Shown here in pieces: positions 5,599 through 49,744 of a stretch of DNA of 64,000 nt. Below the pieces are notes generated by a model. The model made no database searches and had not been told where the DNA came from. It saw nothing but the letters and a program-made list of their open reading frames with translations. Positions within the stretch are counted from its first letter, which is position 1. Every line of letters begins with the position of its first letter. This DNA is from Centroscyllium fabricii. Taxonomy: Eukaryota. Made by a program: the position numbers and the translations under genes. The DNA lies in the NCBI GenBank assembly GCA_051313645.2, contig JBNRSN020000001.1, forward strand, positions 260,214,001 through 260,278,000, read 5' to 3'.

Positions 5599-7333
5599 TG
5601 TAAGAAGTCACACAACACCAGGTTACAGTCCAACAGATTTATTTGAAAACCGAAAAATGTGGAGAGAGACACACCGGCTGTGAGCTTCTCAGCAGCTCTG
5701 CTCTGCTCTGCTTGGTGCTGTGTGAACAGGTTGCTCCACACCCCAGCTGCTCCTGGGGAATGCCAGTGCGGTGGGCCCAGTGCACAAGGCCCAGGGTGCA
5801 AGACCCAGAGGAGAGTTTCCTAGGTGGGAAGCCCAGCACGGAGGACCGCAGGCGGGGGGCCCAGGGCAGAGTGGCTGGTCGGCAGAAGCGGAGTCGGGGG
5901 ATGCTGTGGGTGAGCATGCTGTACAGTTTCTAAGGTTTAAGAATGGCCTCAGGCCCGGATGAGTTCCAGGGGCCTTGCCTATGCTCCATCTGGTGGCTGT
6001 GAGGCTTGTTTCATTGACGGGATCGGATTTGTGAGCCGCCATTTTGGTGGAGGAAAGACAGACTGTTTCCATCTGTAGCATGGCGCATGAGGGGCCATAA
6101 GATGGGAAAAGAGAACAGAATAAAAGTAGAAAAAAGGAAAATAAAAGGAAGATAAAAGACAAAGCAAAGTAATATCGGCAAGGAATAATGACTGTCTTGA
6201 TGGCTGGGTCCTGTGAGTGATAACAGCAAGAAGAGGGAAATTTGAGTCGTCGTTTTTCTTCTTTGACAGGATTTGAGAAAGTGGTCGGCTTCTTTCTGTG
6301 GAAAGCTTGAAGACTACGGACAAGGATCATGACATTATATGGTTAGATAACATCAAGTGAAATCAAGGAGTTATCAGAGTGCCAATAGGACTGGTGTAGA
6401 ACTGGTATTTACTTGTTTTGTTTAAGAAGTTTCAGGTTTCTGGTTAAAAGTAGTTTATTTGAAATTGATTTCTGATGTGGTTGTGGGACTTTGTATATTT
6501 TGGTGTTATTTACTGTGGATGTCTTCTTTAATGTACGAACGAACGCTCAAGTGAACGTGCGCATGCGGATACAATAATACGCACACATACACAATGGAAC
6601 TTAACTTCGACCGAATGGAGGGCCCACTCCCCAGGATAATTTGGCACCCTGCTGAGTGAGCGTGAGGCCTGTCTGGACGGATGAACGAATGCACGCATGC
6701 ACACAGGTAGACAAATGGCACACTTGCACGCAGACATGCACAATGGAACTTACGCTTGAACGAACGAACGGAGGAATGAATGACTGAATGATTAAGCGAT
6801 GCCAGTAGGACTGGCGTATATGGGATTTTTCTTCTCTTGGTTTATTGGATAGTGGCAGTTTGTACTGTAAACACTATTGATTTACCTGTAAAAATGTATT
6901 ACAGCTGTATTCTATTATTGTTGACCATAAAGCTTTTTGTTGTGGTCAATGAATGTAATGGATTTACTATGTAATTGATGAGTTGTATAAGTACTGTTGT
7001 ACTTGAATGTTAAAATAAGGAATTACCAATAGGACTGGCGTAACATTGGTTTTTGTTTCATTATGTGTACTTTTATTGTTAGTATTGTTGGTTTGTCTGT
7101 AGGATTTACCGCTGCATTTGTACTGTTAACCCTAGAGCTGTTTTTAAGGTTTTGCTTTATTGCGGCTAGTGAATGTAATGGATTTATTATGTAATTGGTG
7201 AGTTGTATAAGTACTGTTGTACTTGAATATAAAAATATAAACACCAGGTTATAGTCCAACAGTTTTATTAGAAATCACAAGCTTTTGGAGCACTGCTCCT
7301 TCCTCAGGTGAAGTCTTGAAAGCTTGTGATTTC

Positions 7334-10300
7334 TATAACCTTCAATTACGTTCTCGGAGTCGAGTAGTAGATTAGAACAATCAGGCTTTTATTCACTTCA
7401 GTTAGATTACACACCAGCAAGCTGACTGTCCCCTGGAATGGCACGGGGGATGGGGGCAGTCACTTATATACCTCCTCCAGCGGGGGAGGAGTCGTGGGCG
7501 GAGCCGGGTATGTTCCAGGTATCATCTCGCAGTGGAATACAGTACAGGTATAGGTTACATGGTGATACATGGTGATTAGCTATATACAGTGATATACACG
7601 TTTATCACATTCACCCCTTCTTTAAAATGAAAGTACAGCGGGGTGAAAAAGACTAATAATTACAAGAATGATCACAGGAAAAAAATATATATATTACAAA
7701 CAGGGTTCTTATGACTACAGGTTTAGTCTATCAGGCGGTTTCGTTGTCCGCGTTGATCTTCGCACCGCTGGTGGTGCCTGTGGTGTTCGTGGTCGTGGAG
7801 CGGCTGGTTGTGTCGGTTGCTCCATTGATGCTGGTCGACTAGTGGTGGTTGTTGTATTATTTCTGGGTGGCAGTGGTGCCCTTATTCTGACAGCAGGGGG
7901 CGCGTTCTCTCCTTCATCCTCTGACTCTAGGGGGCGCGCGTTGTGGATCCAAGCTTGGGGCCCGGTCGTGCTGCTCGCAGGTGCCTTGTGGACATACTGG
8001 GGTACTGGGCCCACGTGTCGGGGCGTGTACTTCGGCTTCAGCGGCATGGGGAGCGTCACAGGACGTTTTGGGTGCGCGGCCTGCTGGGCGGGGCTTCTTT
8101 GGAGCTCGGGCTGCCTGGCGGGGCTGGGTTTCGGGACTCCTGCTGGGGCTAGGTCCTTTATGGACACGGTGTCCTCCCTCCCGTCGGGGAATGCTATGTA
8201 AGCGTACTGGGGATTGGCGTGCAGGAGGTGGACCTGTTCGACTAGGGGGTCTGCCTTGTGTCCCCTCACATGCTTCCGAAGCAGGACCGGTCCCGGAGAT
8301 AGTAGCCACGATGGTAGCGAGGTCCCGGAAGCTGACTTCCTGGGGAAGGCAAAAAGTCTTTCGTGAGGGGTGGCATTAGTGGCAGTACACAGGAGGGACC
8401 GGATAGAGTGGAGTGCTTCAGGGAGAACGTCCTGCCATCGGGTGACTGGGAGGTCTTTAGACCGTAGGGCTAACTGGATGGCTTTCCAGACCGTGGCGTT
8501 CTCCCTCTCTACCTGTCCGTTCCCCCGGGGGTTGTAGCTGGTAGTCCTGCTAGTCGCGATGCCTTTCGCTAGCAGGAACTGGCGCAGCTCGTCGCTCATA
8601 AAAGAGGCCCCCCGGTCACTATGGATATAGTTGGGGTACCCGAACAGGGAGAAGATGCTACTGAGAGCCTTGATGACGGTGGCGGAGGTCATGTCCTGGC
8701 AGGGGATGGCGAAGGGGAAGCGGGAGTACTCGTCGATGACGTTGAGGAAGTACACATTCCTATTGGATGAGGGAAGGGGCCCTTTGAAATCGACACTGAG
8801 TCGTTCAAAGGGGCGAGTGGCCTTAATCAAGTGCGCCCGGTCAGGCCGGTAAAAGTGCGGCTTGCACTCCGCGCAGACCTGGCAGTTGCTGGTCATGGTC
8901 TTGACCTCCTCGATAGAGTAGGGGAGGTTGCGGGACTTCACAAAGTGAACCAACCTGGTGACCCCCGGGTGGCAGAGGTCATTGTGAAGGGTTTGGAAAC
9001 GGTCAGCCTGTGCGCTGGCACAGGTACCGCGGGATAGGGCGTCTGGGGGTTCGTTAAATATCCCGGGCCGGTACAAGATATCATAATTGAACGCGGATAG
9101 TTCAATTCTCCACCTCAATATCTTGTCGTTCTTGATTTTACCCCGTTCCTTGTTATTAAACATGAATGCGACTGATCGTTGGTCAGTCAGTAGGGTAAAA
9201 CGTTTGCCGGCCAGGTAGTGCTTCCAGTGCCGCACTGCTTCAACAATGGCCTGGGCCTCCTTTTCAACTGAGGAATGGCGGGTTTCGGGGCCTTGGAGGG
9301 TACGTGAAAAGAAGGCCACGGGTCTGCCCGCCTGGTTAAGGGTGGCGGCCAGGGCAAAGTCCGATGCATCGCTCTCTACCTGAAATGGGACGGACTCATC
9401 CACAGCGTGCATCGTGGCTTTGGCAATATCGTTTTTAATTCTGCAGAATGCCGAGTTGGCTTCTGCAGAAAGAGGAAAAGAGGTCGATTTAAGTAGTGGG
9501 CGAGCTTTGTCCGCATAATTGGGGACCCACTGAGCATAATACGCGAAAAATCCCAAACACCGTTTAAGGGCTTTGGGGGTGTGGGGGAGGGGAAGCTCCA
9601 TGAGGGGGCGCATGCGGTCCGGGTCTGGACCGATGACTCCATTCTCCACCACGCTGCCGAGGATGGCCAGGCGGGTGGTGCTAAACACACATTTCTCCTT
9701 ATTGTATGTTAAGTTCAGGGTTTTGGCCGTGTGGAGAAATTTTTGGAGGTTGGCGTTATGGTCCTGCTGATCATGGCCGCAGATGGTCACATTATCAAGA
9801 TACGGGAAAGTGGCTCGCAGCCCGTACCGATCAACCATTCGGTCCATCTCCCTCTGGAAGACCGAGACCCCGTTCGTGACGCCAAACGGAACCCTAAGGA
9901 AGTGGTAGAGGCGACCGTCAGCCTCGAAGGCTGTATAAGGACGGTCCTCTGGGCGGATGGGGAGCTGGTGATAAGCCGATTTTAGATCAATCGTGGAGTA
10001 CACTTTAAACTGGGCGATTTGGTTCACCATGTCCGCTATCCGGGGGAGGGGGTAGGCATCTAGTTGGGTGAACCGGTTTATGGTCTGGCTGTAGTCCACC
10101 ACCATCCTATTCTTCTCCCCGGTTTTCACTACTACTACCTGCGCTCTCCAAGGGCTATTACTGGCCTCTATGACCCCCTCTTTTAGGAGGCGCTGCACCT
10201 CAGATTTTATAAATACCATGTCCCCAGCACTGTAGCGCCTACTTTTGGTGGCGACGGGCTTACAGTCTGGGGTGAGGTTGGCAAAGAGAGATGGAGGGGC

Positions 10301-12003
10301 AACCTTAAGGGTTGAGAGGCCACAGGTAGTGTACTGGGGGTACCGCCTTGAGCCGCGGTTTCTGACCGTGAGTGAGGGAAGGGATCCGCCGAATGCCATC
10401 GTAACGCTCTGAAGGTGGCACTGAAAATCCAGTCCCAGGAGTAGGGGGGCGCAGAGCTGCGGCAGCATGTAAAAACTAAAGTCGTTAAACATTGCGCCCT
10501 GTACATTAAGCGTTACAATACAGCGCCCGGTGACGTCAGCGGATTCCGACTTGGACGCCATCGATATTCTCTGGCGCGCAGGGATTACTGTAAGGGAGAG
10601 GCGCTTTACAGTATTTTGGTGAATAAAACTTACTGTGCTCCCATTGTCGAACAGGCACACCACTTCTTCCCCGTTGACTTCCACCGGCATCATCGATTTC
10701 TCCAGTGGTTGAATCTTCCTCTGGTCTAGGCTCATGGATGCTAACACCGGGTCCTCCGAGTTGTCTTGATCCGGAGAGTAGTCCTCCAAGTCTGCTCCCC
10801 AAGATGGCTGCCACCATGTGTTGTGCTGTGGAGGTGGAGGCTGAGTCCAAGATGGCCGCTGTTGCTGCTGCTGCCACGAGGGCTGCTGAGTGGGGGATGG
10901 GTGAGCCCAATATGGCTGCTCCCCTGTTCCACATGCGGCGCTGCCCAGTTTGGATTTTGCGCTGGTGTTTTTACAAACCTTCGCATAATGTCCCTTCTTG
11001 TCGCATTTTGAGCAGGTCGCTTCTCTAGCAGGGCAGCTGCGTCTTGAGTGCTGAGGTTGTCCACAAAAGTAGCATTTAGCTTTAGCGTGGGCAGCTGTGA
11101 GTAATTCTTCTGCCGGTCGTTGCGCCAGTGCTGTCCAAGATTGCGGGGCTGGGCCCGTATAGTTACTTGAATATGAGGATAGGTCCATTGATGCGCTATC
11201 CAGCGCGTGCCCCAAGTCTGTAGTCGCCTGTAAGTCCTGGCCGTTCTGCTCCAGCAGTCTCTGCCTGGCATAGTCCGATTTTAGGCCTGTTACATAAGCG
11301 TCTCAGATGAGGCTCTCTACGTGGACTTGAGCCGTTTGCGCTCTGCAGTCACAGTCCCGTGCCAGAATTCTGAGGGCTCTTAGGAACTGCACACTTGACT
11401 CGTTATTTTGTTGCTTCCTGGTGGCGAGTATATGTCTCGCGTGGACTATGTTTGGTGCCCGATTATATTCCGTCTCGAGGATCCTGATGGCCTCTTGGAA
11501 CGATGGGGCGTCCACTATCATCGAGTACACTTGAGGGCCCACCCGGGCATGGAGGAGTCGCCGTTTTTGCTCCTCGGTCACTATGACCGCCGCGTTGGCT
11601 CTGATGTACCCTTCGAGCACGTTTCACCAGTGTGAGAAGGCGTTCGATGCTCCTGAAGATCGGGGATCAACTTCGAACACTGCTGGTTTAAGCATTGTGG
11701 TATCCATTTTACAGTAGTGAATAAAATTGTAACCTTCATTTACGTTCTCGGAGTCGAGTAGTAGATTAGAACAATCAGGCTTTTATTCACGACAGTTAGA
11801 TTACACACCAGCAAGCTGACTGTCCCCTGGAATGGCACGGGGGATGGGGGCAGTCACTTATATACCTCCTCCAGCCGGGGAGGAGTCGTGGGCGGAGCCG
11901 GGTATGTTCCAGGTATCATCTCGCAGTGGAATACAGTACAGGTATAGGTTACATGGTGATACATGGTGATTAGCTATATACAGTGATATACACGTTTATC
12001 ACA
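7334..12003 (-). mobile_element. Full-length Gypsy LTR retrotransposon B
   Basis: 276-bp LTRs 7334-7609 and 11728-12003 with ~5 substitutions; TSD ATTTC (7329-7333 / 12004-12008); PPT next to the 3' LTR. Confidence 0.97.
7715..11707 (-). pseudogene. Single-frame gag-pol of element B with two in-frame TGA stops in gag
   Basis: ATG at 11707 is in frame with the 1166-aa ORF. Domains: zinc knuckles (CYFCGQPQH..C, CSKCDKKGHYAKVC), protease LFDNGS, RT DLKSAYHQ and YLDN, RNase H SDASD, HHCC and DDE integrase. Stops at 11624-11626 and 11303-11305. Confidence 0.92.
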
Positions 12004-13334
12004 ATTTCTAATAAAACTGTTGGACTATAACCTGGTGTTTATATTTTAATATTCAAGTACAACAGTACTTATACAACTCATCAATTACATAGTAAATCCA
12101 TTACATACATTGACCACAATAAAAGCTTTATGGTCAACAACAATAGAATACATTTTTTCAGGTAAATCAAGTGTTTACAGTACAAACTGCCACTATCCAA
12201 TAAACCAAGAAAGAATCCCTATAAGCTAGTCCTACTGGCATCGCTTAATCATTCAGTCATTCATTCCTTCGTTCGTTCAAGCGTAAGTTCCATTGTGCAT
12301 GTCTGCGTGCATGTGTGCCATTTGTCTTACCTGTGTGCATGCGTGCATTCGTTCATCCGTCCCGGCGGCCACACACTCACCCAGCAGAGTACCACATTCT
12401 CCTGGGGAGCGGGCCCTCCATTCGGTCGAACGTAAGTTCCATTGTGTATATGTGCGTATCATTTGTCTACCTGTGTGCATGCGTGCATTCGTTCATCCGT
12501 CCTGGCGGCCTCACGCTCACCGAGCAGGGCTTTCCAAATTCTCCCGGGGAGCGGGCCCTCCATTCGGTCGAAGTTAAGTTCCATTGTGTATGTGTGTGTA
12601 TTATTGTATCCGCATGCGCGCGTTCACTTGAGCGTTCGTTCGTACATTAAAGAAGGCATCCACAGTAAATAACACCAAAATATACAAAGTCCCACAGCCA
12701 CATCAGAAATCAATTTCAAATAAACTACTTTTAACCAGAAACCTGAAACTTATTCAACAAAACAAGTAAATACCAGTTCTACACCAGTCCTATTGGCACT
12801 CTGATAACTCCTTGATTTCACTTGATGTTATCTAACCATATAATGTCATGATCCTTGTCCGTAGTCTTCAAGCTTTCCACAGAAAGAAGCCGACCACTTT
12901 CTCAAATCCTGTCAAAGAAGAAAAACGACGACTCAAATTTCCCTCTTCTTGCTGTTATCACTCACAGGACCCAGCCATCAAGACAGTCAATATTCCTTAC
13001 CGATATTACTTTGTTTTGTCTTTTATCTTCCTTTTATTTTCCTTTTTTCTACTTTTATTCTGTTCTCTTTTCCCATCTTATGGCCCCTCATGCTCCATGC
13101 TACAGATGGAAACAGTCTGTCTTTCCTCCACCAAAATGGCAGCTCACAAATCCGATCCCATCAATGAAACAAGCCTCACAGCCACCAGATGGAGCACAGG
13201 CAAGGCCACTGGAACTCATTTGGCCCGAGGCCATTTTTCAACCTTATAAACTGTACAGCATGCTTACCCACAGCATCCCCCCCGACTCCGCATCTGCCGA
13301 CCAGCCACTCTGCCCTGGGCCCCCCCCAGCTAGG

Positions 13335-13563
13335 TGTTGTGCTGGTAGCACAATAAATACTCGGACACAGATGATCAACAACAAACAAGAGGTCTTTACT
13401 CGGCCAACGCCCAGGTGGAAACTGAATACAACTTGCAGTACAGCGCTATTTATACTAGGTGACCTAAAGAGGTATTACAGTAATCTTCCACCATACACAA
13501 AATAGTGCAGCTCTGTTATAGGCTCACAGGCTGTCCATCATACGCCTTATCACATACACTACA
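13335..13563 (-). mobile_element. Solo LTR inserted in the right foldback arm only
   Basis: TG...CA ends, imperfect 5-bp TSD CTAGG/TTAGG, absent from the left arm; TATAAAT on the minus strand. Confidence 0.65.
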
Positions 13564-14729
13564 TTAGGGTCCTCCGTGCTGGGCCTCCCGCCCAGGAAAC
13601 TCTCCTCTGGGTCTTCCACCCTGGGCCTTGTATACTGGGCCCACCGCACTAGCATTCCCCACGAGCAGCCGGGGTGTGGAGCAGCCAGTTGACACAGCAC
13701 CAAGCAGAGCTGAGAACCTCACAGCCTGTGTGTCTCTCTGCACATGTTTCGGTTTTCAAATAAAACTGTTGGACTGTAACCTGGTGTTGTGTGACTTCGT
13801 ATATTTGTCCACCCCAGTCCAACACCGGCACCTCCACATCAGGAGGAGATGGTAATTGGGCAGGTTAAGAAACAAACGATTGCTCTAGATAAAGTTTAAA
13901 TTGTGCTGGCAGAATGAAAGACAGCTGGCATGTGGGAGAGAAGAAAAGAAAACACAAAACAAGTGTGGATAAAAAATATATGATAGGGGCCGAGGTTATG
14001 ATCAGAAATTGCTGAACTCTATGTTAAGTCCAGAGGCTCTAAAGTGCTGGAACTGTACTGCACTGTGATTGGTCATTCTGTGATTGGAGAGTTTACGGTC
14101 GGTGTTCTGTATTGTGATTGGTCAATCCGAACGAAAGCTTGTCTCCGATTGGAGAGTTTACGGTTCCGGTGCTCTGCGCTGTGATTCGCAGAGTCTTTTA
14201 TCCGATTGGCCAATCTGTGCCCGATGCTGATCTGTGATTGGTTGAATCACAGTAAGTGCTGCCAAATGCAAAATCAGACCGTTGATTGGGTGCGTGGTTA
14301 TTGTTGGGTCTGAGCCTCCAAGACCAATGAACCTACCATTAGCCAGTTCAGAATTGAGGCGAAACACATGCTTGCGAAGATGATTGGTGAGTCTGAGCTC
14401 TGTGGTGATTGACAGCACAAACCTGCATTGTTATTGGTACAATTACCACCTGGAGATTGTAATTGGCGGGATTGGCGTTCGAGGTTTTGTGATTGGCTGG
14501 TCCGAACTACCGCATGACTGAGTGGGCGTCAAGCCCTCTCGGCATTGTGATTGGCGGAGGTGATTCCTACTGCAATATGATTGGTCAGTGTTAGCTGGCG
14601 TTTGATTGGCATAATTGGGGAATCGCACTGTGATTGGCTAGTCTGTGTGAGTCTGCGATGGGTGAAACGGTAGTTTCGGGTACACTGTGATTGGCGGGGC
14701 GGGGCGGGGCTGCGCTGCCGTGCTGTGAT

Positions 14730-15187
14730 TTATTTACTTTTTATTCGTTGATGGGATGTGGGTGTCGCTGGCTGGCGAGGCCTGCATTTAGTGCCCATCC
14801 CTAATTGCCCTTGAGAAGATGGTGGTGAGCCGCCTTCTTGAACCGCTGCAGTCCATATGGTGTAGGTACACCCACAATGTTGCGTAGCGGTTGTTTACAA
14901 CTGAGTGGCTTGCTCGGCCATTTCAGAGGGCATTAAGAGTCAACCACATTGCTGTGGGTCTGGAGTCACATGTAGGCCAGACCAGGTAAGGATGGCAGAT
15001 TTCCTTCCCTGAAGCACATTAGTGAACCAGATGGGTTTTTGCAACAATCGACAATGGTATCATGGTCGCCATTACTAAGACTAACATTTAATTCAAATTC
15101 CACCAGCTGCCGTAGTGGGATTTGAACCCATGATCCTCTATGGCTTACTCGTCTAGTGACATAACCACTTCGCCACCGCCTCCCCCG
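14730..15187 (-). mobile_element. tRNA-derived SINE (family 2, LINE-derived tail)
   Basis: A/B-box head (GGTGGCGAAGTGG...GGTTCAAATCCC) on minus; homologous to 23166-23640. Confidence 0.85.
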
Positions 15188-15380
15188 GCAGGGGTTATGT
15201 CACTAGATTGACAGGGCTTGAGCTGCCGCCCCGTGATTGGCGGGGCTGTGTGAGTTTGCGATTGGAAAAGCGGAGGTTTCGGGTACGTTGCGATTGGTCG
15301 GACCTGAGCGGACGCCGAGCTGTGATTGGCGCGGCTGGGGTACCGCCGCGCTGTGATTGGCGAGACTGCACTGCCGCTCT

Positions 15381-15890
15381 GTGATTGGCGGGGCTGTGTG
15401 AGTTTGTGATTGGAGAAGTGGAGGTTTCGGTTATGCTGTGATTGGCGGAGCTGCGCTGTCGCTCTGTGATTGGCGGGGCTGTGTGAGTTTGTGATTGGAG
15501 AAGTGGAGGTTTCGGTTATGCTGTGATTGGCGGAGCTGCACTGTCGCTCTGTGATTGGCGGGGCTGTGTGAGTTTGCGATTGGAGAAGCGGAGGTTTCGG
15601 CGATGCTGTGATTGGCGGAGCTGCACTGCCGCTCCGTGATTGGCGGGGCTGTGTGAGTTTGCGATTGGAGAAGCGGAGGTTTCGGCGATGCTGTGATTGG
15701 CGGAGCTGCACTGCCGCTCCGTGATTGGCGGGGCTGTGTGAGTTTGCGATTGGAGAAGCGGGAGGTTTCGTTGATGCTGTGATTGGCGGAGCTGCACTGC
15801 CGCTCCGTGATTGGCGGGGCTATGGTGAGTTTGCGATTGGATAAGCGGGAGGTTTCGGCTATGCTGTGATTGGCGGGACTGCGCCGCCGC
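15381..15890. repeat. 85-bp tandem repeat x ~6, three ATTGG per unit
   Basis: Unit starts at 15381, 15466, 15551, 15636, 15721 and 15807. Confidence 0.92.
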
Positions 15891-15999
15891 GGCGCTGTGA
15901 GTGGTCAGGCCTGAGCGGACGCTGAGCTGTAATTGGTGGGGCTGCGCTGCCGCTCTGTGATTGGCGGGATTGTGTGATTGGAGAAGCTGGAGGTTTTGG

Positions 16000-16338
16000 G
16001 GCAGGCGGTGCCATTGGCTGGGGCAGGCGGTGCCATTGGCTGGGGCTGCGCTGCCATTGGCTGGGGCTGCGCTGCCATTGGCTGGGGCTGCGCTGCCATT
16101 GGCTGGGGCTGCGCTGCCATTGGCTGGGGCTGCGCTGCCATTGGCTGGGGCTGCGCTGCCATTGGCTGGGGCTGCGCTGCCATTGGCTGGGGCTGCGCTG
16201 CCATTGGCTGGGGCTGCGCTGCCATTGGCTGGGGCTGCGCTGCCATTGGCTGGGGCTGCGCTGCCATTGGCTGGGGCTGCGCTGCCATTGGCTGGGGCTG
16301 CGCTGCCATTGGCTGGGGCTGCGCTGCCATTGGCTGGG
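16000..16338. repeat. 21-bp tandem repeat (GCCATTGGCTGGGGCTGCGCT) x 14 plus two 22-bp variants
   Basis: Directly visible; the ORF track shows MAAQPQP 14 times. Confidence 0.95.
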
Positions 16339-16483
16339 TCCGGTCGGCAGGGAGACGGGAAGCGGTTGTCAGGGGCCGATTGCGGGAAGGCCGAGGAGGA
16401 GCGGACTCCGGCTCGGAGTGTCATCCCGCGGGGGAAGGAAGGGCGGAGAGACCGAGGCTGGTGGTTTCACCGTCGAGTGAAAA

Positions 16484-16588
16484 ATGGGCTGCCTGTTCTC
16501 CCGAAAATCCAAGGGGAAAAACCGAGGCGTCAAGGCCGCGGCGGCCGAGGAGGAGCCCAAGCAATACAGCTGGGACAAGCGGGAGAAG
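16484..16588 (+). CDS. RP2: RP2 (XRP2, ARL3 GTPase-activating protein) coding exon 1
   Basis: Translates MGCLFSRKSKGKNRGVKAAAAEEEPKQYSWDKREK, matching the vertebrate RP2 N-terminus (Gly2/Cys3 acylation motif; PKQYSWD.REK). GTAAG donor at 16589, phase 0. Confidence 0.95.
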
Positions 16589-16629
16589 GTAAGGTAAGGG
16601 CCGGGCTGGGCTCGGCCGGAGTGCCAGGC

Positions 16630-16870
16630 CCCCGGGGCAGGGGAGAGGGTGAGGGCCGGACCCCCGGGGCGGGGGAGAGGGTGAGGGCCGGACCCCCGGG
16701 GCGGGGGAGAGGGTGAGGGCCGGACCCCCGGGGCGGGGGAGAGGGTGAGGGCCGGACCCCCCGGGGCGGGGGAGAGGGCCGGACCCCCGGGGCGGGGGAG
16801 AGGGCCGGACCCCCGGGGCGGGGGAGAGGGCAGTCCCCGGGGGGAGAGAGCGCAGTCCCCGGGGGGATGC
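16630..16870. repeat. G-rich ~26-32 bp minisatellite at the start of intron 1
   Basis: Repeated GGGCCGGACCCCCGGGGCGGGGGAGAGGGTGA; GC boxes and G-runs on the sense strand. Confidence 0.85.
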
Positions 16871-17110
16871 CTCCCTGCCCTGCCCTGCCCCAGTGTTGAG
16901 CAATCCGGCTCTTCTCCCTCGGGCTGATTTCTTCATCTTCAAATCTGCAGAGAGAGAAATGTGCAGGTTGCTGTGACTATTTTATGAAGCAGTTACCTCG
17001 TTTGATAACTCTCCTACGAAGCGACTTGGGACGGTTAATTACATCAAAGGCACTAAATAAATGTAGGTAGTTGTTGCCTGAAAGAAATGCTGTAACTGCC
17101 ATATATATAA

Positions 17111-17555
17111 TTGGAGAGGCTGAGTAGATTGGGCCTCTACTCATTGGAGTTCAGAACAATGAGAGACGATCTTATCGAAACATATAAGATTGTGAAGGGG
17201 CTTGATCGGGTGGATGCGGTGAGGATGTTTCCACTGATGGGTGAGACTAGAACTAGGGGGCATAATCTGAGAATAAGGGGCTGCCCTTTCAAAACTGAGA
17301 TGAGGAGAAACTTCTTCACTCAGAGGGTAGTAAATCTATGGAATTTACTACCTCAGAGCTGTGGAAGCTGCAACATTAAATACATTTAAAACGGAGATAG
17401 ACAGTTTCCTAACGGATAGGGGAATAAGGGGTTTCGGGGAGCGGGCAGGGAAGTGGACGTGAGTCTAAGTTCGGATCAGCCATGATCCTATTGAATGGCG
17501 GAGCAGGCCCGAGGGGCCGTATGACCGACTCCTTCTCCTACTTATGTTATGTTCA
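17111..17555 (+). mobile_element. CR1 LINE 3' end
   Basis: ERLSRLGLYSLEF...RNFFTQRVVNLW and CR1 tail. Confidence 0.9.
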
Positions 17556-17619
17556 TTTGTTTACCCTTATGCCATTCAGTAGAGTCAAAAGTGGGATATG
17601 CAGAGATTCAATGATTCGC

Positions 17620-17883
17620 AGTCCAACGGTTTTGTTTGGGGTCGCGGGCTTTCGGGGCGCTGCTCCTTCCTCGGGTGGGGGAGGGGTTCGTCCAAAGACA
17701 GCACATATACAAGCTTGTGTGTGTGCTGTCTTTGGATGGACTTCTCTTTCGCCTGGGGTGGGAGGGGGGGGAGCGGCGCTCTGAGGGCTTGTGATTTCGG
17801 GTGAAACTGTTGGACTATAACCTGGTGTTGTGTGACTTCTTGCATTTGTCCACCCCAGTCCAACACCGGCACCTCCACATCAT
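17620..17883. mobile_element. Penelope-derived palindrome with A>G hypermutation
   Basis: Hairpin 17620-17816 centred on AAGCTT (17711-17716), followed by the PLE terminal extension ...CCGGCACCTCCACATCAT. Confidence 0.85.
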
Positions 17884-17885
17884 GG

Positions 17886-18155
17886 CTTTCAAAACTAAGA
17901 TGAGAAGAAACTTCTTCACTCCGGGGGTAGTAAATCTGGAATTTGCAACCTCAGAGCTGTGGAAGCTGCAACGTTAAATAAGTTTAAAACGGAGATAGAC
18001 AATTTCCTAGCTGATAAGGGAATAAGGGGTTACAGGGAACGGGTAGGGAAGTGGACGTGAGCCTAAGTTCGGATCAGCCATGATCCTATTGAATGGCGGA
18101 GCAGGCCCGAGGGGCTGTATGGCCTACTCTTGCTCCTACTTCTTATGTTCTTATG
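17886..18155 (+). mobile_element. CR1 LINE 3' end
   Basis: Homologous to 17285-17550. Confidence 0.85.
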
Positions 18156-41135: not shown

Positions 41136-41801
41136 ATTGACGTCAAAGACTATATGCTGGTTGGCTTAAAGGATCAGACGGTGGGCCGATTGCCTGGTAA
41201 AGTTGCCGGTGAGCAATTTGTCATCCAAGATTGTCAGAACTGCAGCATTTACATTTTTGACCACTCTGCCACCATCACCATTGACGACTGCACCAATTGC
41301 AGGATATTTCTGGGACCCATCAAGGGCAGTGTGTTTTTCCGTGAATGTAAAGACTGCAAATGTGTGGTGGCTTGTCAGCAATTCCGTACTCGGGATTGCA
41401 GAAAAATGGACATCTTCCTCTGCTGTACAACGCAGCCCATCATCGAATCGTCCACGGGCATGAAGTTTGGTTGTTTCCAGTATTACTATCCCGAGCTGGG
41501 CTACCAGTTCAAAGATGCAGGCTTGAGTATCTTCAACAACAACTGGAGCAACATCCATGACTTCACCCCTGTTGCAGATGAGAACAACTGGATCTTGTTA
41601 CCTGACGATGCGACGCTGCAGGATTACGTTCCTCTGCCTGAATCTGAGGAGCTGAAATCGGTTCGGATCTCCACCGAGTCGAACAGGAGCATTGTTCCAG
41701 TCACGCGGGGCCAGAGGCACAAGAGCAGCGAAGAGTTGTGCTTGGTGGTGTTTTTTGCCGGAGATTACTCCACAGCCAACGCCAGGAAGTTAATCGATGA
41801 G
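41136..41801 (+). CDS. RP2: RP2 coding exon 2 (TBCC/C-CAP beta-helix GAP domain)
   Basis: T-rich tract plus TAG acceptor at 41135; 666 nt, phase 0/0; IDVKDYML...CQQFRTRDC (arginine finger)...QPIIESS...[12 protein letters not shown]...ARKLIDE; GTGAG donor at 41802. Confidence 0.97.
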
Positions 41802-41979
41802 GTGAGAAAGTCGCAGGGCTGCATTCCGTGTCTTTTGTTTACTATCCTGCTCGGTGTAGTCCAGGGCCAGTGATGTTGCAGTGTTCATGAAGGGAATGTC
41901 CTGTTGCTATGTGCTTCCAGGGCACAAGCTGCGGTCTGAATTGGCAGTGGTTTGCGAGTGACCTGCATCTTGCCTCATT

Positions 41980-43653: not shown

Positions 43654-43692
<39 letters not shown>

Positions 43693-43711
43693 CCATATTT
43701 CACTAATCTAG

Positions 43712-46700
43712 TGACGTATCGTCAATATCTTCGATTAAAAGAGTCGACGAGTAGTTGCCGAAACTAAAGGCTTTTAATTGCTAAGAACGGAGCTACCCTC
43801 CAGAACGAACTACAGTACAGGAATGAAGGAGCCTCGGTCAGATCTCACCTATAACGGGGCCTCACCTGGGGGAGGAGTTGGAGGTGTGGCTGACCTGGCT
43901 CCCAACAGTGTCACAGTATACAGGGCTGTGCCTAACATCTGCACAGCCCATCATTAGCCATAATGGTACAGTGGTATAGTAGACATACAATGGTTACCAC
44001 ATTCACCCCTTCTTAAAAACTTTGAGTCCGGGGGGGGTGAATGGATCGAACAGTTCACGATAAGTCTGTCCGGCGGTCGTGTCTGCCTGGAGGACCGCCG
44101 GTGCTCCGGTGTTGGTGGTGGTGCCTCCTGGGTCGAATAGCCCACATCTGCCGGCGCTGTGACTTCAGGTGGCGGTGGGCTCGGCTGGTCCCCGCCGTCC
44201 GGGTCGTAGTCGGGGAAACTCAGGGGCCATCGTGCGTCTGGTGGTTGATCGGCCTGCTGGCCGGCCGGGGGCTCTGCGGTGGTGCTTCCTGCGGGAGCCA
44301 GGTCCCTGATGGACACGGTGTCCTCACGCCCGTCCGGGAACTGCACGAAGGCGTAGTGCGGGTTCGCGTGTAGGAGCTGTACCTTGTCCACCAGGGGGTC
44401 CGTCTTGTGGCTCCGGACATGCCTTCTAAGCAAAACCGGCCCCGGAGTCGTCAGCCATGGAGGAAGAGCTGTCCCCGAAGTCGACCTCCTGTTAAAAGAG
44501 AAAATCAGATCGTGCGGGGTGGCGTTAGTGGCAGTACATAAGAGAGAGCGTATAGAGTGCAGCGCGTCTGGGAGGACTGCCTGCCAATGGGACACTGGAA
44601 GGCCTCTGGACTTGAGAGCCAGGGTGACCGCCTTCCAGATAATCCCATTCTCCCTTTCTACCTGGCCGTTCCCCCGGGGGTTATAACTGGTCGTTCTGCT
44701 CGTGGCAACCCCTCTCTGGAGCAGAAACTGGCGCAGTTCATCGCTCATGAACGATGACCCCCGGTCGCTATGGATGTAGCTGGGGAGACCGAAAATGGCG
44801 AACAGCGCGGTGAAGTGTTTGATCACCGTTGCGCTCGTCATGTCTGGGCAGGGGAAGGCGAAGGGGAAGCGGGAGAACTCATCCACTACCGTGAGGAAGT
44901 ATGAGTTGCGGTCGGTGGAAGGGAGGGGGGCTTTGAAGTCCACGCTGAGACGTTCAAAGGGGCGGGTGGTCTTAATGAGGTGCGCCGTGTCTGGCCGGAA
45001 AAAGTGGGGTTTGCACTCGGCGCAGACAGGGCACTCTCGGGTCATAGCCTTGATCTCCGTGATGGAGTAGGGGAGGCTACGAGATTTAACGAAATGGGCG
45101 AGTCTGGTGACACCCGGGTGGCAAAGGCGGTCGTGGCGGTCCTTCAGCCGGTCTAGCTGGGCACTGGCGCACGGTCCCCTGGACAGTGCGTCCGGGGGTT
45201 CGTTGAGTTTGCCTGGTTGGTAAAGAATGTCGTACTCGTAAGTAGAGAGTTCGATCCGCCACCGCAGGATCTTATCATTCTTGATTTTACCCCGTTGTTT
45301 ATTGTTAAACATAAACGCCACCGACCGTTGGTCGGTGAGCAGGGTAAAACGCTTACCGGCCAGGTAATGACGCCAGTAGCGCACGGCCTCCACGATGGCC
45401 TGGGCCTCCTTTTCCACTGCTGAGTGGTGAGTTTCGGGTCCCTGTAAGGTGCGGGAGAAAAACGCTACGGGCCTGCCTGCCTGATTCAGGGTGGCAGCAA
45501 GGGCAAAGTCCGAAGCGTCGCTCTCCACCTGGAAAGGGATGGATTCATCAACAGCGAGCATGGTCGCCTTGATAATATCTTCCTTTATCCTTGCGAATGC
45601 CGTTTGGGCTTCTACAGAAAGGGGGAAGACGGCAGCCTTGAGGAGTGGTCTAGCCTTATCTGCGAACTGTGGGACCCATTGTGCATAATAGGAGAAAAAT
45701 CCTAGGCATCTCCTCAAGGCTTTGGGGTTGTGAGGTAGGGGCAGTTCTTGCAGGGGTCGCATACGCTGTGGGTCGGGGCCGAGGAGCCCGTTCTCCACCA
45801 CATATCCGAGGATGGCGAGCCGGTCTGTATTGAAGACGCATTTGTCCTTGTTATACGCAAGGTCCAGCTTGTCCGCCGTGGTGAGGAATTTGGCCAGATT
45901 GGCATCGTGGTCCTGCTGGTCGTGGCCGCAGATGGTCACGTTGTCCAGGTAAGGGAAAGTGGCCTGCAAGTCGTTTTGGTCAACCATACGGTCCATCTCT
46001 CGTTGGAACACTGACACTCCGTTGGTCATGCCAAAGGGGACCCGGAGGAAGTGGTAGAGCCGACCGTTCGCCTCGAAGGCGGTGTAGGGGCAGTCGGCTT
46101 TCCGAATCGGGAGCTGATGATACGCCGAATTAAGGTCGATCATAGAGAACACCTTGTACTGGGCGATCTGATTGACCATTTCCGAGATGCGGGGGAGGGG
46201 GGAGGCGTCGAGCCCGGTGTAGCGGTTGATAGTCTGGCTGTAATCGATAACCAGCCGCTGTTTTTCGCCAGACTTCACCACTGCAACTTGGGCGCGCCAG
46301 GGGCTGGTGCTGGCTTCAATTATCCCCTCCTTCAGCATCGGCCCGACCTCCGACCTGATAAACGTGCGATCCCCCTCACTGCACCGCCGACTCTTAGTGG
46401 CAATGGGTTTGCACTTCGGATCGAGGTTGGCGAAAAGCGAGGGGGGTTCGATTCTCAGGGTGGAGAGGCCGCAGACCGGGCTCCGCTTTGGGGGGGGATT
46501 GTCTCGGCTACTGACGATGAGGGGGGGTAAGGTCCCGCCGAACTCCATTGTCACGCTCCTGAAGTGGCACTGGAAATCCAAACCTAGTAAGGCTGGGGCA
46601 CACAACTGTTGGAGGGTATACAATTTAAAATTACGGTACACGCGCCCCTTGACGGTGAGCGTGACGGAGCAGTAGCCGGTGACGTCCGCGGTGTGGGACT

Positions 46701-48585
46701 GTGAAGCTAGGGAGACTTTGTAGTTGGTGGGCAGGACCTGCAGTCCGCAGCGCCGCACTGTATCAGGGTGAACGAAACTCTCAGTGCTGCCTGTGTCGAA
46801 AAGGCAGTCGACAGTGTGATTATTAATAGTAATCGGCATTATGGAGTTAGACAGGGTATGGGGCCTGCCCTGGCTAACTCTGATTCTGGCTGCCGCAGCC
46901 CCTGCTGATCAGGGCTGTGCACAAGATGGCGGCGCCCCTGGCTCGCACATGGAGGGGCCCGGGATACAAGATGGCGTCGCCCCTGGCTCGCGCATGGAGG
47001 GGCCCTGGATACAAGATGGCGTCGCCCCTGGCTCGCACATGGAGGGGCCCTGGATACAAGATGGCGTCGCCCCTGGCTCGCACATGGAGGGGCTCTGGTT
47101 ACAAAATGGCGTTTCCGAGGGGACGCACACGGTGGGGCCCTGTGAAGGCGCTGGCGGCGCCCGTGATTCGCACGCAGCGAACCGCGGTGATCGGGTTGGC
47201 GGTGCCCGTGATTCGCACGCAGCGGGCCGCGGTGGTCGGGTTGGCGGTGCCCGTGATTCGCATGCAGCGGGCCGCGGTGGTCGGGTTGGCGGTGCCCGTG
47301 ATTCGCACGCAGCCGGCCGCGTTGGGGGGTCGCGCTTGGCCGGCCTTTGCCGCATCGGGGTGGGGGATGGGGGCGCTTGTTGTCTACCCCCGTACCGTCG
47401 CTGGATCGCGCTGCTGTTGCAGCTTACCTGGTGTCTGTCGGTGCTCTCACAGGCTGCACTGTTGTACCTTGAGTTGGGCGCTGCTGGAGCTGATCTGCAG
47501 GCTTTAGCGTAGTGTCCCTTCTTCGCACATTTCTCGCAGGTCGCCGTCCTGGCTGGGCATTTCGCTCTTGGGTGCAGTCCCTGGCTGCAGAAGTAGCAGC
47601 GCTTGTCTTTAGTGGCCGTCGCGGCCATCGTGGGGGCCTCGGCCTGTTGCGCCCAGGCCTGGGCCTGTTGTGGCGCGGCCCATATGTTGTAGGCTTGCGG
47701 GTTAGTGCCGCTGTACGCCTGTAACTTGCTTCGGGCCCCCTCTACTGATTTGGCTATCTTAGTCGCCTCCTCGAGGGATAATTCGTCTTTCTCTAGTAGC
47801 CGCTGGCGGGCTTCCACACACCTCAGTCCTGTAACATAAGCGTCCCGAACAAGGAGTTTTTCCTCCTCTTCAACTGTTGTGCCTTTGCAGCCACAGACCC
47901 GTACCAGGGCCAGGAGCGCTTGCTCGAACTCCTCATTGGACTCACCCGGTAGCTGAGATCTGGTCGCCAGCACATGTCGGGCGTAGACTGAATGGACCGG
48001 GCGCTCGTAACATTTCTTCAGAATTTGTACAGCCGATACGTAGGATGAGGCGTTCCTGATGAGGGTGAATACCCTGCTGGAGATCCTCGATCGTAGGACA
48101 TGCAGCTTGTTCCTGTCCGTTGTAGCCTTGGCGGCGTCCATGTAGGCCTCCAGGAGGCCGAACCAGTGTTCGTACGTGGCGGCAGCGGCATGGTCCTGGG
48201 GACTGATGTCCAGCTTCTCAGGTTTAACTGCGCTGCTCTCCATTTTAAAAATAATTAGCAATTAAAATTGACGTATCGTCAATATTTTCGATTAAAAGAG
48301 TCGACGAGTAGTTGCCGAAACTAAAGGCTTTTAATTGCTAAGAACGGAGCTACCCTCCAGAACGAACTACAGTACAGGAATGAAGGAGCCTCGGTCAGAT
48401 CTCACCTATAACGGGGCCTCACCTGGGGGAGGAGTTGGTGTGGCTGACCTGGCTCCCAACAGTGTCACAGTATACAGGGCTGTGCCTAACATCTGCACAG
48501 TATACAGGGCTGTGCCTAACATCTGCACAGCCCATCATTAGCCATAATGGTACAGTGGTATAGTAGACATACAATGGTTACCACA
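43712..48585 (-). mobile_element. Full-length Gypsy LTR retrotransposon C (RP2 intron 2, antisense)
   Basis: LTRs 43712-44001 and 48269-48585 differ by a 30-bp duplication, a 3-bp indel and ~1 substitution; TSD TCTAG; PPT present. Confidence 0.97.
43954..48243 (-). pseudogene. gag-pol of element C; one in-frame TGA (46909-46911) just before the protease
   Basis: Gag MESSAVKPEKL with two zinc knuckles; pol LFDTGS, YLDN, SDASD, HHCC and DDE; gag and pol are in the same frame. Confidence 0.9.
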
Positions 48586-49744
48586 TCTAGTGCTATTGAA
48601 ATGCCACGTGTTTGGGCTGGGGCTAGAACAATGTGATTTATGCAAAGGTGTTGTGACATCCACAAGCTGGCAGCATAAATTAGATACTGGAGTGGGGTAA
48701 AGGGTAGTGTTTTGGTACTTCCCCTTCTTGTCAGCTCAAAATCATCTCATTCTGAAGTGGTGGTTTCCACGTGCATGTAGAAGACAAGATCATTGGAGTT
48801 AACACTCATTTTTTTCATGTCATTGGCCCGTCCTTGTGGTCAGCGATGAAGCAAAGGCACTCGCGATCTCTGGCGAAATTCGTTTTTTCCAACGTGCAGT
48901 TGAAATGCTTGTAAGTTGATGGGGAATCTCTAACGCGAGCTGCTGTGACATCAACAAGCTGTCTAAGCAGCCAATCAAAATTCAGAATTTTCACAGACCG
49001 AGAGCCAGGAAGTGAGTAAGCTGCTCTGATTCTAACTTTTAAAAATGTTCTAGAGAGACGAAAATACAGATTTGTGGCTCTCACGTGGGGGGGAAAAGGT
49101 AAACCTGAAATAAAGAACAAACTTTAACATTGAGAAACTAAAATGTTTTAAATTTTTATTAAAATGGATAAATTTGACACTCCACAAAATCTTCGGGGCC
49201 ATAACCTTTGGTTAGCAGTTAATATGTTGTTAACACTCCAGTTACACCTAATCCAACAAGGCTTAACTTTTAGTGGGGCATTTAACTACGATATTCCCGC
49301 AGAAAAGCCGAAGTTTTCGTCCGTTGCACTGATTTCCGACTGGGGGTCGGGGGCCTCGGAGCAGTGACTGACCGCAAATTCAGGAATTCTGCGTTCGGTG
49401 CGCAGGCGCTACATCCTGAAGCTGCGGTCAGTTGCAAAGTGGTAACAACAGCGATCGCTGTTTGTTTGATTGCTGTTCTCACCCACCGCAAATTCTGGCC
49501 ATATTTCTTTTCCCGAAATGCACAACCTAACGATGGGAAGTGAACCTAGATTTGGAGGGGGTGAATGTGAATGATTTAAACTTGGATGAGGAAAGCTTTG
49601 CGTGCTGTTGTACAGGGCAAAGAACAAATTGTATTTGTATAGCGTCTCCAATATAAAATGTTCCCAGGGCGCTTCATGTAGGAGAGAATGGTAGAAGTGG
49701 AGTTGGGAGAGATGATGGATAGCATGGTCAAAAATGGAGGCTTT

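Follow-up and report, generated by a model that had tools for sequence, protein, structure and literature searches.

The 64,000-nucleotide stretch of Centroscyllium fabricii DNA analysed here (the window) raises the question of how the promoter of one gene came to carry about 60 CCAAT boxes. Between 14060 and 16338, ATTGG (CCAAT on the opposite strand) was counted 60 times on the + strand and twice on the − strand, a density of 27/kb compared with 2.2/kb in the remaining 61.7 kb of the window. The window-wide total of 195 is close to chance (shuffle mean, 190.5), and the signal therefore lies in local clustering and strand uniformity. Tandem Repeats Finder (TRF) detected an 85-bp unit (6.3 copies, 94% identity) at 15350-15890 and a 21-bp unit (16.2 copies, 99% identity) at 15997-16338, both arranged head-to-tail and within the 7- to 100-bp unit range of promoter minisatellites, and reported no tandem array over 14060-14730. 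With the tandem arrays masked, no 5-mer of the window was as dense as ATTGG in this distal part (16 in 560 bp, whereas the best unrelated 5-mer reached 13). The CpG observed/expected ratio was 0.9-1.2 across 15001-16000, compared with 0.59 for the whole window.

The gene downstream of the array was identified as RP2 by the match of 41160-41804 to human XRP2 (PDB 2BX6, E=5e-123). This match and an open reading frame place exon 2, which encodes the tubulin cofactor C-like domain, at 41136-41804 (+). Coding exon 1 (16484-16588, +) consists of 35 codons, begins with MGCLFS and ends at a GT donor. It is preceded by a GC-rich leader and core promoter (16339-16483, +), in which both a TATA-type motif and an upstream ATG were absent, and the final ATTGG box lies 155 bp upstream of the start codon. 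The RP2 promoter in this DNA is of the CpG-island, TATA-less type. Rfam gave no matches in 12000-18000. At the start of intron 1 (16629-16867, +), a 32-bp minisatellite without ATTGG was observed (6.7 copies, 92% identity, 85% GC) that contains GGGCGG boxes and G-quadruplex-type motifs, six of each; exon 1 has tandem arrays on either side. Long open reading frames running across the arrays were considered as genes and rejected as repeat read-throughs.

Other repeats are abundant in the window. An LTR retroelement on the − strand (7336-12003), with a 1,195-codon open frame at 7715-11302, lies within nested repeats upstream of RP2, and its direct repeats (7336-7609 and 11730-12003) are 98.5% alike, which marks it as a young insertion. 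It is flanked by inverted copies, 87-97% alike, of a 1.4- to 1.8-kb repeat at 5601-7017 and 12042-13801. A second LTR retroelement (43690-48590, − strand) is located in an RP2 intron and has open frames of 450 and 984 codons. Its open reading frames enclose 45-bp coding repeats (46921-47321) containing what we take to be a YY1-like word; because they lie within these frames, they were rejected as a second promoter motif array. From 39258, a dense cluster of TGCGC and GCATG (13 in 560 bp) was observed that is absent from the TRF output.

The sequence-only reading of this locus had described boxes of nearly uniform orientation, directly upstream of RP2, in three tiers. Orientation and position are borne out by the counts above, and the tiers are real, including the three boxes in each 85-bp unit. 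However, that reading had missed five boxes (15236-15356) and the degenerate interlude between the two young arrays (15881-16000), and the 21-bp array, which had been called perfect over 16000-16338, is letter-perfect in 14 units, from 16040. The old distal tier (14049-14620, +), which is common to a relative described below, contains 16 ATTGG boxes and 2 broken ones among mostly unalignable spacers, and its 5′ end is a repeated two-box dimer. Next to it lies a diverged copy of the proximal module (14621-14730, +; 73-81% identical to the 85-bp units in BLAST), whose last box is cut by an interspersed repeat. This repeat of about 460 bp (14731-15186, −), presumably a SINE, has copies elsewhere in the window at 78-90% and sits between the ATT and the GG of one box, with no target duplication found at the insertion. 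Its position inside a box indicates that a continuous array was split. The module family resumes after the SINE-like repeat (15187-15350, +; boxes at 15236, 15261, 15293, and 15325) and is followed by the 85-bp three-box units (15351-15890, +), with box spacings of 25, 32, and 28 bp and a CpG observed/expected ratio of 1.1. The interlude (15891-16000, or about 15881-16000, +; 68% in TRF) is homologous to 15293-15384 and retains three intact boxes and one broken box. The one-box 21-bp units (15997-16338, +) include two variant lead-in units.

These parts had been attributed to repeated, independent amplification of one transcription factor site, a claim that is not supported, given their common monomer family. 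Besides the BLAST identity of the module copies, a few recurring spacer types are common to the pre-SINE, post-SINE, 85-bp, and interlude parts; spacers without clear relatives occur only in the middle of the distal tier (~14237-14620). The 21-bp unit is a shortened form of a 28-bp monomer at 15932-15964 that lost the bases just before the box, and the two are linked by an identical 15-bp core, which within the window occurs outside the 21-bp array only at 15932-15964. Judged by this likeness, a single monomer family gave rise to the pre-SINE, 85-bp, and 21-bp parts. With boxes at intervals of 25-36 bp, duplication of a stretch at least that long necessarily copies one, and the presence of ATTGG in the young tiers therefore needs no selection.

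We compared the array with related DNA. Among the 10 runs listed as sharing words of 15200-16630, four were from organism A (share, 0.43-0.60) and six from organisms B and C (0.06). None was recorded as RNA, which says nothing about expression. Contigs of 4 of the 10 runs were aligned to 14037-14755 at 80% likeness. In both organism A samples, one contig each covered the distal tier with two to three differences, one of them reaching into the SINE-like repeat, which indicates that the distal tier and the SINE junction are real and apparently single-copy. One of the two samples had a 5-bp deletion near 14693. Both organism A runs also contained another 1.2-kb GC-rich contig that matched the 35 bases of 14686-14720 with five differences; this contig probably represents a separate GC-rich locus in which a CCAAT/GC-box word occurs. 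The only contig from organism C, 153 bp long and identical to 14073-14225, is uninformative.

Relative B, about 5% diverged, was the most informative. One 5,291-bp contig aligned to 14049-14700 with 37 substitutions and 56 gap letters. Beyond 14700 it continued with 128 letters that were not seen, a second copy of the module, which carries an additional 28-bp box monomer (this second piece was reported with zero mismatches, which is unexplained), and a leader-like end of 30 letters that matched the RP2 leader from 16339 at 28/30. In B, the RP2 leader thus lies ~230 bp after the distal tier, and the cluster is about 911 bp long compared with 2,290 bp here, with well under half the boxes. The contig leaves no room for the SINE-like repeat or the six-fold 85-bp run, and its last box has the old context and not the 21-bp context, the 21-bp array being absent at B's proximal end. 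This evidence consists of one contig of one run, whose differences from the window are unpolarised; in contigs built from short reads, perfect repeats can also be shortened by collapse. Homology with B starts at 14049, only 14 bp before the first box core; the DNA further upstream is completely different, and a search of the window that allowed up to three mismatches gave no match to the upstream flank of B.

The alignment shows that the box cluster predates the split from relative B, and on the same contig the young tiers are lineage-specific. The comparison of RP2 promoters that had been proposed as a check was made with B, which has a ~0.9-kb cluster without the SINE-like repeat, the 85-bp run, and the 21-bp array. 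The age gradient proposed along the array holds in that the distal tier is common to B and the young tiers are not; it is not monotonic, since the degenerate interlude (68%) lies between two young arrays. The concern that the array might be a dispersed satellite was not borne out, as the distal tier, belonging to an array that ends 155 bp before the RP2 ATG, appeared as one contig per run and no second copy was found in the window.

The best explanation, to which we assign a probability of about 0.6, is an old multi-CCAAT promoter cluster of the NF-Y type that was inflated by minisatellite expansion and whose distal boxes are redundant. The old cluster comprises some 20 CCAAT boxes on one strand, most of them at distances of 25-36 bp, within about 0.9 kb. 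After the split from B, the lineage gained the SINE-like repeat inside one box, the 85-bp block of three boxes expanded six-fold in tandem, and a shortened form of the last monomer expanded sixteen-fold; together these changes stretched the cluster to 2.3 kb. Slippage or unequal exchange of the ordinary minisatellite kind may have produced the expansions, the setting being a G-skewed CpG island, and the boxes of the young tiers would be carried along by descent alone. In mouse, according to the accessible part of PMC6624317, NF-Y keeps the nucleosome-free region and fixes the start site. By analogy, NF-Y may bind the proximal boxes at RP2, hold the promoter nucleosome-free and set the start site; four supplements of that mouse study contained no Rp2 entry. 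The boxes would have been held by past selection, and now, among many copies, each distal box would be redundant and drift near the neutral rate.

A bolder reading, possible and offered tentatively, is a conveyor-belt promoter. Tandem duplication at the proximal end would renew NF-Y sites and displace older boxes outward, and selection would hold the boxes near the start while freeing the displaced ones. Such a process would leave a layered record: intact boxes among unrelated spacers, followed by modules and finally by perfect repeats. If this layering recurred at many CCAAT promoters of the clade, site number and not site identity would be the conserved trait, and if it were widespread, allele length would tune the output of a housekeeping gene.

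A rival of low probability is a selected dosage or barrier element. On this reading, additional NF-Y sites would increase RP2 output or protect the open state of the island from transposons, and the expansions would have been fixed by selection. In its favor, ATTGG is kept in every tier, and the first 14 kb of the window is rich in interspersed repeats and contains a long retroelement open reading frame. Site quality also bears on this reading. The high-affinity NF-Y flank is described in the consulted part of PMC3144453 as YRR before CCAAT and CA after it. The youngest, 21-bp unit has YRR in 16/16 boxes, in favor of a selected element, and CA in 0/16. The 85-bp tier has CA in 14/18 boxes and a purine at −2 in only 1/18, a poor fit to the YRR flank that counts against the preferred explanation. 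As for spacing, promoter CCAAT pairs peak near 31 bp, and adjacent NF-Y trimers need at least 24 bp, by the portion of PMC4982600 available to us. All spacings of the 85-bp tier clear this minimum, in line with a selected element, whereas neighbouring boxes of the 21-bp tier do not, which speaks against it. Simultaneous binding in the 21-bp tier would be limited to alternate boxes (42 bp apart), and the predicted simultaneous occupancy of the whole array is at most 48 of the 60 boxes under the 24-bp minimum.

The substitutions that separate the window from B weigh on the same reading. Over 14079-14618, the range to which the test was limited (ends excluded and 5 of the 37 differences unlisted), 4/15 distal boxes were broken in B, and 4/25 substitutions fell in boxes (75 of 526 sites) when 3.6 were expected. 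The substitution rate was 0.053 in boxes and 0.047 outside. A relative box rate of 0.1 was rejected (P=0.0007), as was 0.3 (P=0.029), whereas 0.5 was not (0.12); thus, within the distal tier and against this one relative, boxes were no more conserved than spacers. In these distal boxes, differences from B are as frequent as in the background, which argues against upkeep of every box, although some one-base deviations are tolerated by NF-Y, as stated in the part of PMC3422339 that we consulted. All four box substitutions lie in 14237-14472, and 17 substitutions were found in 14286-14472. By contrast, 14473-14618, with five boxes inside, had no substitution over 132 aligned sites (P=0.0075); it is possibly a constrained sub-block and favors the selected element. 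Only 1 of 52 CpG positions of the window differed in B by a transition, so that no CpG hypermutability was seen, another point in favor of the selected element; lineage-biased CpG loss was not significant (6/13, with 4.6 expected). Against selection of the whole array, RP2 in B sits behind the 0.9-kb cluster with far fewer boxes, an insertion was tolerated within a box, and an array free of the motif also grew in intron 1. The intron-1 array shows that tandem repeats grow in this CpG island whatever the motif.

The converse reading, a wholly neutral minisatellite, is improbable. An ancient short repeat containing ATTGG would have decayed and been re-amplified, and at most one or two boxes nearest the start would matter. 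The equal rates of box and non-box substitution against B are what it predicts, and variable-number tandem repeats (VNTRs) generally show enrichment 1 kb upstream of genes and within CpG islands (10.1101/2020.11.03.367367, in part). In simulations of neutral decay scored by ungapped flank identity, up to 12/150 runs per setting retained at least 16 hits with an identity of 0.40 or less, and the pattern was thus sometimes mimicked. In the real distal tier, however, 5-mer sharing among spacers is at shuffle level while ATTGG is present 16 times. With an indel-robust spacer statistic, which was picked after the ungapped statistic had failed to exclude neutral decay, 0/1411 simulations with 31- to 36-bp units and at least 16 hits had spacers as unrelated as the real ones, and 33/3475 passed with 10- to 15-bp units. 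Neutral decay is also at odds with the mismatch asymmetry of the boxes. Across twenty near-matches to the 10-bp core in the distal tier, the flank half had 27 mismatches and ATTGG had 3 (p=8e-6), compared with 392 and 405 for background near-matches, and CCAAT was followed by CA in 10/16 distal boxes compared with 16/133 elsewhere; boxes related by duplication are not independent, so such p-values are too small. Finally, indels in B turn the window spacings of 15, 34, 31, 36, 21, and 32 bp into 31, 36, 31, 36, 31, and 32 bp, so that B's old 5′ end has a 31/36-bp box spacing, and this restored 31-bp spacing likewise disfavors plain decay. The evidence on the retention of distal boxes is split between past retention and present neutral loss, which the redundant promoter cluster that we prefer would reconcile.

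An exapted transposon promoter of the LTR12/ERV9 type, in which the array arrived as the U3 of a mobile element with its boxes kept by selection on the element, is very unlikely. In the LTR12 U3, repeats of about 41 bp that contain NF-Y sites number 5-17 (PMC11853044, in the part available), the locus is rich in transposons, and homology with B breaks off at 14049. Nevertheless, at 80% likeness each run gave a single contig for the distal tier (14037-14685), coverage of runs X1, X2, and X6 being 95-98%, although contigs show presence better than absence, and no second copy, R/U5-type partner, or second LTR for it was seen in the window. An exact 23-base piece of the 85-bp unit had 0 matches in viral contigs. 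Least credible of all is that assembly error inflated or created the perfect 21-bp array. In its favor, 14 units are letter-perfect, the best runs contain just 0.43-0.60 of the words of 15200-16630, and the alignments covered the distal tier only. Against it, the origin of the unit is clearly local and the array is led by two variant units, two organism A samples confirmed both the distal tier and its junction with the SINE, and a wrong copy number would leave the other 44 boxes.

The kind of element is known, namely, a promoter repeat that multiplies a transcription factor site; about 60 boxes with datable layering are unusual. Promoter repeats of this kind have a few to about 17 copies in the accessible parts of the reports considered here, and mainly in the open literature, subscription journals being largely outside our scope, no description of this RP2 array was found. 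The human TRIB3 promoter VNTR of 33 bp is similar in being a conserved promoter element, shorter in relatives, that was tandemly amplified in one lineage, and its copy number raises transcription (PMC7425993, in part). It differs in having 1-5 copies of one C/EBP-ATF unit, compared with ~60 boxes in several nested units over 2.3 kb at RP2, which are known here from the sequence. The U3 of LTR12/ERV9 also has tandem same-strand CCAAT repeats, and in the globin locus, one copy has 14 repeats that are NF-Y-bound and required for open chromatin; it belongs to a dispersed retroviral LTR family with units of about 41 bp also carrying GATA sites (PMC11853044 and PMC3730095, both in part), whereas the RP2 array is apparently single-copy, lies at the host gene's own promoter and shows no LTR anatomy within the window.

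GC-rich minisatellites upstream of genes and in CpG islands resemble the RP2 array in position, unit sizes, and internal variant patterns, and a second array is found in RP2 intron 1. The old tier differs from them in that a single motif is kept while its spacers are unrelated, a pattern not easily produced by plain decay of a minisatellite (compared with the available part of 10.1101/2020.11.03.367367). The multi-CCAAT NF-Y promoters, in which an occupied box is expected to have a start site 60-100 bp downstream, resemble the array in direct-repeat orientation, in the 31- to 36-bp spacing found at its old distal end, in a CpG-rich setting without TATA, and in a final box lying about 155 bp upstream of the ATG. 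As far as the consulted sections of PMC4982600 and PMC6624317 describe them, they have pairs or a few boxes near the start site, compared with tens over kilobases at RP2, and the 21-bp spacing at RP2, unlike that of the promoter pairs, is below the 24-bp trimer minimum given in the former. If copy number proves to have no effect, the array would be a caution that mutation alone can build large promoter motif arrays. Together with a relative that has a 0.9-kb version, the layered array at RP2 offers a natural experiment on how the number and spacing of NF-Y sites relate to start-site choice, expression, and CpG-island protection, and it is also suited to studying the turnover of redundant sites.
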